Below are positions 713-62,270 of a stretch of 64,000 nt of DNA, in pieces (position 1 is the stretch's first letter; each line of letters begins with the position of its first letter). A program made the translations under genes and the position numbers. Below the pieces are notes generated by a model that was not told where the DNA came from, made no database searches, and saw nothing but the letters and a program-made list of their open reading frames with translations. The DNA is from Eledone cirrhosa (lineage: Eukaryota), in the NCBI GenBank assembly GCA_964016885.1, contig OZ024742.1:294438001-294502000 (forward strand). The letters are read 5' to 3'.

Positions 713-920
713 TATTAAGATAAGCAGAACAAGCAAAATTCAACCAATTTTTAAAAATAAATTAAAAAATATAATTTAAATATTTACCCATTCTTTTGGC
801 CCTTACCGATCGGTTTCGCTTTGTAAAACACCAGAAATACAGGAAAGGAAAATGCTTCTCTGATGAGCTTTGATTTTCCATTGGAAATCCATTGGATTTC
901 TGGTGTTTTACAAAGCGAAA
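713..920. mobile_element. Fold-back PLE pseudo-LTR fragment with a split hammerhead ribozyme
   Basis: 25-bp inverted repeat 814-838/896-920. + strand: ctgatga(860-866) gctttg...caaagc gaaa(917-920), truncated there. - strand arm: caaagc GAAA ccgatcgg TA aggg (HHR 3' half with palindromic stem III). Confidence 0.75.
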
Positions 921-1812
921 TATATATCTTTTTATGATGTATTGTTTTTGTTTATGCCACGAAACTACGTAGTCGAGGAATCTAGGAGCAGTTTAGGTAT
1001 GATACATTTTATTACTAATTATATCTAAATGTTTCTTCTCTCTTCATAATGTAATTTTAACTCTGATACTGGTTCAGTCTAGTTCAACCGGATTGGTCTG
1101 TCCCAGTCATTCATTGAGCAACATCGGTGAGGTTGGCACCCTTAACTCACGGTTGGGTGTGGATGCATTCATGTATATGTGTGTGTCCGCATGTATCTGT
1201 GTGTTTCTAAATATATTGTTAATAACTCCCTCTGGTTGAGTAATCTTTGAAGTGTGGTGACTGCTGGAAAGCTGCCATTACTCATACTTCTCGCCTCCTT
1301 CACCACCTCTTCTACGGCTTCGATGTGAATACCCCCTCCGCCTCTGTGGTATTTTATTCGGGGTTATAAGAGGCTTAGCTCTGTTTCTCGACCGTTATAT
1401 CGCGTGACTATCTCCCCCTCCGCCTTTTGGGATTCTTTCTCACGCCGTGTAGACGCGTTCTTGAGACTAGTAAAATGAGGTATCCTCTTGATAAGTCGGC
1501 AGACCTCACAGGGACTCTATATATTTTTATGATGTATTGTTTTTGTTTATGCCACGAAACTACGTAGTCGAGGAATCTAGGAGCAGTTTAGGTATGATAC
1601 ATTATATTACTAATTATATCTAAATGTTTCTTCTCTCTTCATAATGTAATTTTAACTCTGATACTGGTTCAGTCTAGTTCAACCGGATTGGTCTGTCCCA
1701 GTCATTCATTGAGCAACATCGGTGAGGTTGGCACCCTTAACTCACGGTTGGGTGTGGATGCATTCATGTATATGTGTGTGTCCGCATGTATCTGTGTGTT
1801 TCTAAATATATT
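921..1812 (+). mobile_element. Partial-tandem pLTR / retrozyme-like unit (about 595-bp period)
   Basis: About 921-1217 is repeated almost exactly at about 1519-1812. Both copies contain gaaa-ctacgtag-tc-gagga; no coding capacity. Confidence 0.7.
1483..1574 (+). ncRNA. Type I hammerhead ribozyme, U3:A8 core variant
   Basis: Stem I tcctc(1483-87)/gagga(1570-74); core TTGATAA(1488-94); stem II gtcggcagac...gtttatgccac; GAAA(1556-59); palindromic stem III ctacgtag; GUC triplet. Confidence 0.75.
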
Positions 1813-2139
1813 ATATATATATATATGTATATATATATATATATGTATATATGTATATATATATATATATGTATATATATATATATATGTATATACATAT
1901 ATATATATATGTATATGTATATATATGTATATATATGTATATATATGTATATATATATGTATATATATGTATGTATATGTATATGTATATATGTATATAT
2001 ATATGTATATATGTATATGTATATATATATATGTATATATATATATATATATATATATATATATATATATATATATATATGTATATATATATATGTATAT
2101 ATATATATATGTGTATATATATATATATGTATATGAATA

Positions 2140-2322
2140 AATAGGAACCAGTAAGACCCCGACGGCTGAGCTCAAGCCGTTTCGACGGCTAATTAGCCGT
2201 CGAAACGGCTTTAGCTCAGCCGTCGGGGTCTTACTGGTTCTTATTACCCACTCTACTACCCTAAGTATTGAGTACTTTGGTGCGTTATGGTCCACCTGGT
2301 TCCTTACCACATTTCCTCCCTT
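2140..2322. mobile_element. Palindromic (fold-back) pLTR fragment with HHR 3' halves and a single-copy tail
   Basis: Near-perfect palindrome 2140-2245 centred at 2192/2193. Each arm reads stem II - GAAA cggct..agccg TC gggg. Tail 2246-2322. Confidence 0.75.
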
Positions 2323-2674
2323 ATATATATATATATATATATATATATATATATATATATATATATATATATATATATATATATATATATATGTATATAT
2401 ATATATGTATATATATATATGTATGTATATATATATATGTGTATATATATATATATGTGTATATATATATATATATATATGTATATATATATGTATATAT
2501 ATATGTATATATATATGTATATATATGTATATATGTATATATATATATATATGTATATATATGTATATATGTATATATATATATATGTATATATATGTAT
2601 ATATATGTATATTTATGTATATGTATATATATGTATATATATGTATATATGTATGTATATATGTATATATGTAT

Positions 2675-59046: not shown

Positions 59047-60842
59047 TAAAGGGTAAAGGGGATGCTCTAGATAGGGGAAACTACAGAGGCATTAAGTTAG
59101 TTGACCAGGTCATGAAGGTCACAGAAAGAGTTATAGCGCAACTAATCAGAGAGCGAATTGATCTACATGAAATGCAGTTTGGGTTTGTGTCAGGTACCGC
59201 GGACACTTTTTTCCTTGTACGACAACTACAGGAAAAGTACCTAGCTAAAAGTAAACCTCTCTACTTAGCTTTTGTAGACCTGGAGAAAGCCTTTGACAGA
59301 GTTCCCCCACTCCATTATCTGGTGGGCTCTTAGAAAACTAGGTATAGATGAATGGCTTGTGAGAGCCATGTATAAAGAAACAGTCAGTAAGGTTAGAATT
59401 AACAATGAATATAGTGAAGAATTTAGTGTAAAAGTTGGTGTTCATCAAGGCTCTGTCCTTAGTCCCCACCTATTTATTATTGCCCTTCAGGCTATAACAG
59501 AGGAGTTTAAGACCGGCTGCCCATGGGAACTCCTATACGCAGATGATCTAATTCTCATAGCTGAATCAATGGCTGAATTAGAGAAGAAATTCGAAACATG
59601 GAAGCATGGCCTAGAATCAAAAGGCCTTAAAGTTAACTTGTCTAAGACTAAAGTTCTAGTATGTAGAAAGGAAAAAAAGGCACAGGTGCCCTCTGGAAAA
59701 TGGCCATGCTCAGTGTGTAGGAAAGGAGTAGGTAGAAATTCCATTTTATGTCCCAAATGCAAACTATGGGTACATTAAAGATGTAGTGGGATCACAGGTA
59801 AACTGTCTAAGAACATAAATTTTATATGTGGCTGATGCTCAGGTGCAATAAGTAGCAGCAAGTGCCCACAGGATACTAGCTCCTTCTATTGCCCAGATGG
59901 TTCTATAGAAATAGTGGACACTTTCCGTTACGTGGGTGACGAAATCAACAGTGGTGGAAGGGTGCTCTGAAAGTACAGTAGCCAGAGTCAGAACAGGATG
60001 GAAAAAGTTTAGAGAGCATATACCTCTATTGGCCGCTAAAGGTTTCTCTCTAAAAATGAAAGGCAGACTGTATGATGCCTGTATACGAACAGCAATGCTA
60101 CATGTCAGTGAGACATGGGCATTGCGTGCAGAGGACCTGCGCAGACTGGAAAGGAATGAAGCATGCAGGCTCTGTTGGATGTGTAATAGTAATATACGTG
60201 AACGGCAAAACATAAATGAACTAAGTGAGAAATTAGGAATAAGAGGGATCAGATGCTGTTTACTTGAGAGAAGACTACGTTGGTATGTCATGTGATGCGC
60301 ATGAAAGACAACAGCTGTATAAAAAAGTGCAGGGCGATCAAAATTGATGGAAGTTACGGAGTAGGCAGACCCAGAAAAATCTGGGACGATTCGATAAATT
60401 CCGACCTTACACACTTACACCTCTCTAAGACAATGTCACTGGACCGAGATCTTTGGCGCTACGCAGTAATACAGAAGACCCGCCTTGCCTATGTACAAAG
60501 CAAAACCTACAGTCAGTAGGCGCCTCTTAACCAAATATACACCCCATCCCACTACCCCTACTCCACCCTCCCACTCCCACCAACACCACCCTCTCACTGT
60601 AACGTTGGTACCACAACATCCAGTCCAAATAAATGAGATAACGAGATTGAGATCGAGATCGTGTAGGTGTCACGACAAAAAAAAACACAGTCCATGCTGT
60701 AATGTACCATGTAGGTAACATGGTAAAAAGTTCCCAGTTCCACACTGTAAATCTGGTTGGTGTTAGGAAGGGCATCCACCCGTAAGAAACCTGCCAGATA
60801 GTCCTATATGAGCGAGATACGGTCACCCGACCAACCTTGCCT
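59047..60842 (+). mobile_element. Decayed RTE LINE with a PHD-like Cys-rich insert in RT
   Basis: KGKGD..NYRGIKL, FVDLEKAFDRVP, GVHQGSVLSP, LLYADD, WPCSVCRKGVGRNSILCPKCKLWVH*RC..IC.*C, RRLRWY; stops and frameshifts; 3' UTR to about 60842. Confidence 0.9.
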
Positions 60843-60852
60843 CAAATTGAAT

Positions 60853-61262
60853 ATCATCATCATGATCATGATCATCACCGTTTCACGTCCATTCTTCCAT
60901 GCTTGCATGGGTTAGACGGGTTGTCCTGTTGTGGGCAGTGTCCAGTCGGCTGACCTTGTCTTGCTCATACGGGAACTGATTCTGGCTTGATTTCTACAGC
61001 TGGATGCCCTTCCTAACACCAACCTCATTTACAGTGAGTGCTGGGTACTTTTTGTCCATGGCGCCTACACGTCCACTTTACAGTGTGGGCTGGGTGTTTT
61101 TTTGCCGTGGCACCTCCACGACAACTTTGCAGTGGAATGATAGGGACCCCAGTCCTATCATCTCATTTCTACAGCTGAGTAAACTAGAGCAATGTGAAAT
61201 AAAGTGTCTTGCTCAAGGAAACAATACATCACCCGGTCTGAGAATTGAACTCACAACCTTTC
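60853..61262 (-). mobile_element. RTE-tail/SINE composite (copy also at 62274-62635)
   Basis: (ATG)n tail; tggatgcccttcctaacaccaacc motif; tRNA-SINE head; 60975-61260 resembles 62330-62595. Confidence 0.65.
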
Positions 61263-61445
61263 CATTATATATAATTAATCCAGGAATTCTGAAGGAATTT
61301 AAGACATTTTTATGTAAGGTATATGGTAAATAGAAGAATTTGATTAAGCAGAATTATAATATATGTGTAAATCCATGTAAGATCATCATCACCGTTTTAC
61401 GTCCGTTCTTCCACGCTAGCATGGGTTAGACGGGTTGTCCTGTTG

Positions 61446-62270
61446 TTTTCATAAAATTAAGCAAGCTAACGGTTTACCAGCAACTTAATAACGGTTAATA
61501 CAAACCCTAGAAAAGATAATTTGTTGATAAAAATGCATAAGATAATATACCTACAATAACAACATGGCCAGTAATTTAACAAACAAACACCTATTGACTA
61601 TAAACGACTCAAAATAATCTCATGGTTAATAGCTGTGAGTTACAAACAACACATACACATACATACAAACTACAACACAAAAACACTTGAATGAAAATCA
61701 CTTATCCAACTCTATCATGTGCTTTGCATTACACCTCACACAACAAATACCTACATTATCACCACATGCCTCTCTAACAAATGGCACACTATCTTAAACA
61801 TTTCTAACAATTAGAACATGCTTTAACACCCCACACAAAAAATGTTTATTTCAACTGCATTATAACTCTTTCCTCAAACATGCCTTATTGACTGTATTGA
61901 CTCCTGCATTGTACACCCATAACATTAACAGCTCTCCAATGTTAAGATATCTTATATCTATCCTATCCCACACTTTTCCTTGCTTATAACTTTTTTGCCT
62001 GTACTTTTTGCTTATACCTCTTACACTTTCAACCAGTGCTGCCTGTAATTATGTTCTCTCAAGCGGAACATCTTTTTATCTCCTGACTCTCCACAGGATG
62101 TCTATGACACTAACAATAATTATGTACCCTAAATGTTCTGAAAGACTAGGATTTTAGTCACATGTTTCGACATTCCCTATGCTCTGATGATTCCAGACTT
62201 CCCTCTGGAAGAAACAATTGTCAACAAATAAATGTTCTAAATTAAAATTTGATCGTTTTAACACTTTGTA
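61446..62270 (+). mobile_element. Old PLE 3' remnant / pLTR
   Basis: CA- and pyrimidine-rich non-coding stretch ending in an HHR followed by aataaa. Confidence 0.6.
62180..62226 (+). ncRNA. Type I hammerhead ribozyme in ACOX3 intron, sense orientation
   Basis: tgct CTGATGA(62184-90) ttccaga-cttccc-tctggaa GAAA(62211-14) caattg TC aaca; one mismatch in stem I. Confidence 0.82.

Follow-up and report, generated by a model that had tools for sequence, protein, structure and literature searches.

The window analysed here is a 64,000-nucleotide (nt) stretch of the 3.0-Gb genome of Eledone cirrhosa (assembly GCA_964016885.1, contig OZ024742.1, positions 294,438,001 to 294,502,000, forward strand), of which 27% is TA/TG array. 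An earlier note on this stretch had described about 18 whole or half type I hammerhead ribozymes in it and attributed them to the pseudo-long terminal repeats (pLTRs) of many unrelated families of Penelope-like elements (PLEs). We consider it highly probable that these motifs lie near the 3' ends of PLEs and of short non-coding repeats likely borrowing the PLE enzyme, and that they pile up because such elements likely insert in TA repeats as 5'-truncated stubs retaining the ribozyme end. The motifs and the PLE open reading frames (ORFs) of the window are listed below by window position and strand; other loci of the genome are given as L numbers.

718..920, both strands: rearranged copy of one hammerhead family, with core, stem II and GAAA on + (860-920) and GAAA at 817, stem III and the 3' strand of stem I on -
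945..985, +: 3' half hammerhead with GAAA at 961 and a palindromic stem III of 8 nt; its parent is the motif at 1488
1480..1577, +: complete type I motif, U3-A8 core, 61-nt stem-loop II, in a retrozyme-like unit with no ORF above 78 amino acids (aa)
2140..2320, +: head-to-head stub with a 3' half hammerhead; 106-nt palindrome and 75-nt tail, turn inside stem-loop II, 17-nt hairpin stem III
6601..6674, -: complete motif, 7-nt hairpin stem III, one stem I mismatch; one relative (L096)
8263..9223, both strands: palindrome of 858 nt with a tail of about 100 nt; two outward-facing complete motifs (8300-8422, -; 8961-9083, +) with an 88-nt stem-loop II
9418..9488, -: complete motif in a 166-nt stub that is 99% identical to the Hydra-clade element end at 17310-17475
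15073..16320, +: putative Hydra-clade PLE ORF, 5'-truncated; thumb, CxCX5C linker, GIY-YIG-type endonuclease, CxxC, CxH
17372..17442, +: complete motif near the 3' end of the 15073 Hydra-clade element, 6-nt palindromic stem III
26176..28400, +: putative Neptune-type PLE ORF, frameshifted; DKG, CX2-5CxxC linker, GIY-YIG (PF01541, E 2.6e-5)
29745..29790, +: hammerhead-like motif of the Neptune-type element; U3-A8, here also with A6 changed, 5-bp stem II, GCAA, 4-nt palindromic stem III
29969..32095, +: putative Hydra-clade PLE ORF, open over 708 aa; RWR, DKT, CxCX5C, CxxC, CxH
33656..33720, +: hammerhead of the 29969 Hydra-clade element, with U16.1 changed to A in the window copy
34238..34490, +: head-to-head stub without a hammerhead; 196-nt palindrome and 57-nt tail, turn downstream of the family hammerhead
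35493..35740, +: head-to-head stub; 144-nt palindrome and 104-nt tail, turning point in loop II; each strand carries a 3' half hammerhead
36676..36824, +: complete motif with a 10-bp stem I, a stem-loop II of 114 nt and a palindromic stem III of 6 nt; fold z -4.9
48472..48526, +: complete motif (relaxed setting), 3-bp stem II, 14-nt near-palindromic stem III
48766..48811, -: U3-A8 motif with decayed stem II and 7-bp stem I; intact relatives at L065, L066, L084 and L095
58026..58139, -: C4-core motif, 9-bp stem II (by eye), weak 3-bp stem I
62176..62230, +: canonical core motif, 7-bp stem II, palindromic stem III, one stem I mismatch

The earlier note named 19 sites. Eight were complete, four had one lesion or a weak helix, four were halves, one had a family-wide variant core, and two were not hammerheads. 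The count therefore stands for 17 of the 19 coordinates, which were hammerhead-derived, but not for 34376 and 35915; many families are indeed present in the window (about 14, some mutually related). The full type I core (C3 U4 G5 A6 N7 G8 A9 / G12 A13 A14 A15.1 / U16.1 H17, or U3-A8) was found at 8 of the 19 sites, and full cores were also present at 48803 (-) and 62184 (+), the latter with little family support (one distant relative found). The core test failed at 33664 (U16.1 to A), 58131 (C4) and 29753 (C13, plus U6 in the window copy), at the four halves, in which the core or the 3' part is missing, and at 34376 and 35915, where there is no motif. The position 34376 lies in tail sequence of a family whose motif is situated about 130 nt upstream (L035, L038) and is absent from the window copy, and 35915 (35847..35994) consists of a tail piece joined to a 66-nt fragment of a different repeat.

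Most incomplete sites could be traced to intact relatives. The 860/817 copy is complete on neither strand and its parent is intact in L043, L047 and L050. The parent of the half at 2202 is intact at L028 and L159-L164; its core is U3-A8, its stem-loop II has 53 nt and its stem III is a 17-nt hairpin. A pattern search for a parent with a short stem had returned chance cores only. For the half at 35551/35578 the parent is intact at L010-L012, and 83 contigs from runs X1 and X4, which may belong to the assembly's own study, continue into an intact core at 35556. The lesion at 33664 (+) is private to the window copy, the U being kept in 5 of 5 close full-length copies. C4 at 58131 is, in contrast, common to its relatives, and U4C is a known natural variant with low activity (PMC3088659). 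The C4 core (CCGANGA) was also seen in more than one copy of several families (L089, L096, L103, L109, L026, and relatives of 58131 and 6666). No relative of the 8263..9223 palindrome was found among the fetched genome loci.

Some details of the earlier description needed correction. The palindromes listed for stem III are real, but tatata at 917 is a junction with TA (the family stem III is ccgatcgg), and at 2202, 6602 and 48474 stem III is of hairpin type rather than a short palindrome. That nearly every island free of long interspersed nuclear elements (LINEs) carries a hammerhead was too strong; by our reading of the island list, about 11 of 15 islands in the first 40 kb do so.

Motifs were counted on both strands with a type I descriptor consisting of the core (C3-G8 or U3-A8), stem II of up to 160 nt, a self-complementary stem III, an NUH triplet and stem I; the strict setting called for paired stems I and II, a self-complementary stem III, NUH, and C3-G8 or U3-A8. 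A first strict version missed most sites because it forced pairing directly after A9. The descriptor was then widened, and since it was shaped after the window had been seen, the shuffles and the outside sample serve as the real controls. Seven complete strict motifs were present in the window (1488+, 6666-, 8414-, 8969+, 9480-, 17380+ and 36684+), compared to a mean of 0.06 (maximum 1) in 200 local dinucleotide shuffles, in which the arrays stayed in place and the islands were shuffled in 500-nt blocks. With stem III widened to 20 nt or less the count remained at 7 compared to a mean of 0.12 (maximum 2) in 100 shuffles, and the relaxed setting, which adds 48480 (+), gave 8 compared to a mean of 0.31 (maximum 2). 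The hit rate in shuffled sequence, which the earlier note had named as a check, is thus not similar to that in the window (7 motifs vs 0.06-0.12 expected). An Rfam scan of the window returned no hammerhead among the best 150 of 546 matches, which were microRNA models on TA arrays.

Three helices with an open stem I are indicated by covariation in the family of the 33655 motif and by a compensatory change in stem I among relatives in a second family (48480). For the former, 12 of 29 homologue rows were dropped (wrong strand or TA-array) and 1 further row was not carried over, which left 16 sample homologues found by BLAST only; with the window copy, 17 sequences were aligned. In this alignment 94% of cells are paired, both partners are changed in 14 cells, and covariation scores 0.207; each of these values exceeds all 500 shuffles, which leave relatedness in place. 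Slid-structure controls had 38-51% paired. Most families keep the full core, including C3-G8/U3-A8 covariation, and the minimum-energy fold of the 2202 parent as a monomer is the full three-way junction.

The two ORFs at 29969 and 15073 appear, by their diagnostic motifs, to be Hydra-clade PLEs. Both elements have a hammerhead near the 3' end and are inserted in (TA)n. Canonical hammerheads and (TA)n insertion are reported for nearly all families of the Hydra clade (PMC8557442, section 11), and a (TA)n preference is listed for Hydra-1_Obim of Octopus bimaculoides (PMC8557442 supplement). The 15073 ORF is colinear with the motif at 17380 along almost the entire 1772-nt query in 29 further loci, and the 29969 ORF is colinear with its motif at 33655 in many other loci. 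The 26176 ORF was assigned to the Neptune type because its DKG, CX2-5CxxC linker and GIY-YIG match; it is colinear with the motif at 29750, and the element spans 26176-29890. Three window families (two Hydra-clade, one Neptune-type) are therefore colinear with a PLE ORF, and the motifs lie within a few hundred bases of the PLE 3' ends. The closest named relative of a window PLE protein is from Argonauta hians (39% identity).

A genome sample of 60 10-kb stretches (600 kb), placed by hand at positions spread over 15 large contigs, contained 69 strict motifs compared to 0-1 in five shuffles. A (TA)6+ run lay within 300 nt of 58 of these 69 motifs, compared to 29% of non-array background positions, and within 400 nt on the 3' side of 60 of the 69; TA bases and motif count per stretch were correlated (Spearman 0.66). 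The proposal that the TA field is a target sink for PLEs is supported by this enrichment, but not as to PLE specificity: LINE pieces in the window are likewise flanked by TA, and the arrays are therefore a sink for more than PLEs. A preference of Hydra-clade and Neptune-type clades for TA or microsatellite repeats had already been reported (PMC8557442).

The LINE pieces comprise an open 1045-aa LINE ORF2 (APE endonuclease and reverse transcriptase) on the - strand at 20110-23247, inserted in a TA array, and a 172-nt inverted copy (99%) of its end at 13938-14109 in another TA array. A LINE-type reverse transcriptase fragment with several C-terminal C2H2 zinc fingers lies at 2678-4138 (+), and the 3' end of another LINE-like repeat occurs twice (96%), at 5491-5703 and 37652-37864, in each case ending in a TA array.

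Motif density was 115 per Mb in the sample (bootstrap 77-155) and 109 per Mb in the window. The window, presented earlier as remarkable, is average for the genome, with at least 7 motifs per 64 kb in 52% of resampled sets, and it adds nothing beyond other TA-rich stretches of the same genome; the 200 kb flanking it are TA-poor and held 4 motifs. Scaling gave 3.4x10^5 motifs genome-wide (2.3-4.6x10^5), or about one per 9 kb. One superfamily pattern had 44,309 exact genome-wide matches (a few overlapping) and 0 for its reversed control; as it accounts for 10 of the 69 sampled motifs, the total by ratio is 3.1x10^5. The sample may run slightly high (11 seen vs 8.9 expected, and 5 vs 2.2 for a second pattern). 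The 69 motifs represent 29 families and 50 locus-by-family groups. A very large and diverse repertoire, as the earlier note had supposed, is thus borne out by the 29 families that make up the 69 strict hits of the 600-kb sample and by the estimate of about 3x10^5 motifs. The axolotl genome is about ten times larger than that of E. cirrhosa. The highest published count that we found is 126,247 motifs, in axolotl (PMC7229834). No cephalopod hammerhead count and no natural A13C family were found in a literature search whose scope excluded most subscription papers and supplementary S2 of PMC8557442 (its hammerhead listing).

The ends of the inserts bear on how the motifs accumulated. Two fixed 3' ends about 70-105 nt apart were seen in the 2202 and 35578 families, and head-to-head pairs take one of each; the two end classes comprised 18 and 9 of 31 copies in one set and 43 and 30 of 85 copies in the other (both sets selected by search). 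Two reverse-transcription start sites have been described in vitro (PMC11167929), and inverted pLTRs with a one-sided tail are known in Penelope insertions (PMC3846280). In 10 pairs, of which one is probably spurious, the arms shared 154 non-majority alleles and had 29 differences at polymorphic sites; both arms therefore come from one source element. These data fit fold-back and twin priming alike. Among 33 fold-back palindromes in the sample, a count that sets aside 32 rows of one L103 satellite, 21 were at hammerhead families and 10 turned in or right at the motif. The predicted cut site was spanned by at least 15 nt on each side in 125 of 368 sampled family segments, while 2 began and 1 ended within 4 nt of it; the templates were therefore uncut or re-joined RNA, and uncut RNA is a template in vitro (PMC11167929).

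All 10 copies of the 2202 family in the sample are interrupted within stem-loop II, the break falling at many positions; in other families this holds for 11 of 102. Members of this family at L088-L090, L102, L103, L107 and L116 are mostly fold-backs with different centres, with no intact parent within the 600-kb sample. Three other readings were rejected. A general stall of reverse transcriptase in the hammerhead did not hold (29 truncations per 5,289 nt inside vs 20 per 4,789 nt just upstream; 19 per 5,138 nt without the 2202 family). More frequent breaks in families with a hairpin stem III (Fisher P 1e-5) were a post hoc result that depended on a single family, and 3 additional events were artefacts of alignment. 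A G/C difference between arms in the 35578 family was not a sign of two templates; in this very large family the query itself had picked out the G arm.

From these ends we propose a sequence of events in which the PLE reverse transcriptase-endonuclease would nick (TA)n, and cDNA synthesis on uncut RNA would begin downstream of the hammerhead, at either of two fixed positions. The cDNA would run through the motif and usually stop early, leaving a stub. A second, inverted arm copied from the same source element would give the palindromes, and a stop or turn inside the motif would give hammerhead halves. New insertions would land in TA runs beside older ones and so form local clusters. From structure, motifs with a palindromic stem III are predicted to cleave as dimers, and those with a hairpin stem III may do so as monomers; an individual insertion probably does not depend on cleavage.

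Several results weigh against PLE-driven accumulation of true hammerheads. A PLE ORF piece on the same strand within 2.5 kb upstream was found for only 6 of the 69 sampled motifs when Hydra-like pieces and the Neptune pieces of the window were the queries; most families are therefore not tied to an ORF here. Five families have same-strand tandem spacings (457, 466 (x3), 482, 526 and 591-595 nt) and are non-coding units. In the 33655 family, the two measures based on numbers of pairs or types did not exceed shuffles. Folding as monomers often fails to yield a hammerhead; of 12 stretches folded, 6 had z above -1.5 or near it. The view that all motifs are pLTRs of autonomous PLEs is not supported, with an ORF link shown in three window families, though not in the other 11, and in 6 of 69 sampled motifs, and with several families being non-coding tandem units. 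Nor is there support for calling the hammerheads minimal: stem III is at least 6 nt in 50 and stem II at least 50 nt in 16 of the 69 sampled motifs.

The same tandem units raise the alternative that most families are strict non-LTR retrozymes, which self-cleave and circularise, the RNA circle being copied by a PLE enzyme, so that cleavage would be central to spread. We regard this as possible, although the balance of evidence inclines away from it. A non-coding tandem unit with one hammerhead each, the mark of such elements, is present in the 960/1488 family, where the half at 945 opens a partial tandem with a 595-nt period (923-1213 equals 1518-1808 at 99%) and L100 has a 591-nt tandem, and in the 860 family, at one locus (482-nt spacing in L050). 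The lack of a long ORF in the 595-nt unit and the conservation of cores and helices across subfamilies also fit, and PLE-linked elements of this kind have been described (PMC7229834; bioRxiv 2026.07.22.740005). However, the units exceed the reported 170-400 nt, short tandem spacings are almost absent from the four largest clusters, whose copies often lie head to head, and two of these four represent the 3' ends of Hydra elements that are coding. Copies that span the cut site are equally compatible with circles and with uncut RNA and do not separate them. At L115:8536-9934 there is a retrozyme-like array of four 466-nt tandem units with a hammerhead in each.

A second alternative is that the hammerhead fold is kept mainly for protein binding or start-site positioning, cutting being vestigial in many families. 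Changes at A13 lower hammerhead activity. The Neptune-linked family has GCAA in place of GAAA in 97 of 100 among the matches listed, of 10,810 exact matches (0 for the reversed-pattern control), across two subfamilies, and in 14 of 14 copies outside the window position; a related family keeps GAAA. No canonical hammerhead was found in 7 long copies of this element (L206-L212), GCAA being family-wide, and A13 belongs to the core consensus (PMC3088659). The insert ends lie away from the cut sites and the GCAA family exceeds 10,000 copies; therefore, cutting may be dispensable for spread, as far as the sequences speak to it, and catalytic mutants were without effect on insertion in vitro (PMC11167929). 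Yet most families keep every core base and the C3-G8/U3-A8 covariation, as selection for catalysis predicts, A13C is presumed, in this context, to lower activity, and one family is one event. We think this explanation rather unlikely. The wider proposition, that the hammerhead repertoire of this genome, with dozens of families, is the largest and densest so far counted and contains a natural experiment in which cleavage is dispensable for Penelope retrotransposition in vivo, a Neptune family having spread beyond 10,000 copies once its A13C change was fixed and the fold serving the element's protein, is likewise doubtful.

Chance matches in AT-rich DNA combined with assembly fold-back artefacts are exceedingly improbable: the context is AT-rich, 2 named sites were false and library artefacts can produce short perfect palindromes, but shuffles gave fewer than 0.4 hits, reversed-pattern controls gave none against 44,309 and 10,810 genome-wide matches, and the palindromes recur with family-specific tails at many loci with diverged arms, so that the chance reading of the motifs is refuted by the shuffle and family tests.

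With insertion of PLE and PLE-dependent stubs into TA repeats as the preferred reading, the motifs are new members of a known association, namely type I hammerheads at the ends of TA-targeting PLEs with retrozyme-like derivatives. They resemble PLE pLTR hammerheads (PMC4209133) in type I topology, an unpaired base before stem II, a palindromic stem III, the U3-A8 variant, the presence of numerous unrelated families in one genome, a predominance of single motifs in truncated copies, and opposite-strand pairs 100-700 bp apart. They differ in that stem III usually has 6-10 nt or forms a hairpin of 14-17 nt, stem-loop II is up to 116 nt long, and about 3x10^5 motifs are estimated compared to thousands there (about 9,000 in Xenopus tropicalis). 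As in the Hydra clade (PMC8557442), there is a short ORF with RW(K/R), DKT, CxCX5C, CxxC and CxH, a canonical hammerhead, (TA)n insertion, and a tandem and inverted arrangement with a one-sided tail; unlike the Hydra clade and Neptune group described there, tails are 57-105 nt rather than 30-40 bp and the Neptune-type family has a core fixed in a non-canonical form.

Penelope insertions (PMC3846280, PMC11167929) share the head-to-head palindromes with one arm extended by a tail, two fixed start points, AT-rich targets and uncut RNA as the main template, whereas here they are seen in thousands of stubs, and in one family (2202, 10 of 10) every sampled copy breaks in stem-loop II. Metazoan non-LTR retrozymes (PMC7229834; Li et al. 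2026 bioRxiv) likewise are non-coding tandem units with one type I hammerhead each beside PLEs, but their units are 170-400 nt (reported as circular RNA) compared to 457-595 nt, and the copies here are mostly dispersed stubs in TA runs.

The remaining interest is in the scale, in stems longer than the published minimal form, and in the family with a fixed variant as a test of the relevance of cleavage. The role of PLE hammerheads is stated as unclear (PMC8557442), and it is uncoupled from insertion in vitro (PMC11167929). Hundreds of thousands of dated copies, in families whose stem III is of the dimer or the hairpin type and in others with core changes that have become fixed (U3-A8, C4, C13), form a panel for asking which forms cut and whether cutting goes with copy number. 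From the count it is also evident how much of the repeat content classed as 'unknown' or as short interspersed nuclear elements ('SINE') in such a genome could be PLE ends; the main text of a 2026 Octopus vulgaris repeat annotation does not mention ribozymes (PMC13282606).

The window also contains other features. Apparent host-gene exons lie on the + strand at 52134-52360, 55242-55480 and 56977-57051, with an ATG at about 52136 and splice-like ends; a Pfam search with two ORFs of these exons (52134-57051) gave no match. Outside the window, an AT-rich palindromic minisatellite of 29 nt occupies L103:5344-6240. Within the window, there are a 543-nt tandem duplication at 40587-41672, a 200-nt duplication at 58154-59025 and a 19-nt minisatellite at 63663-64000.

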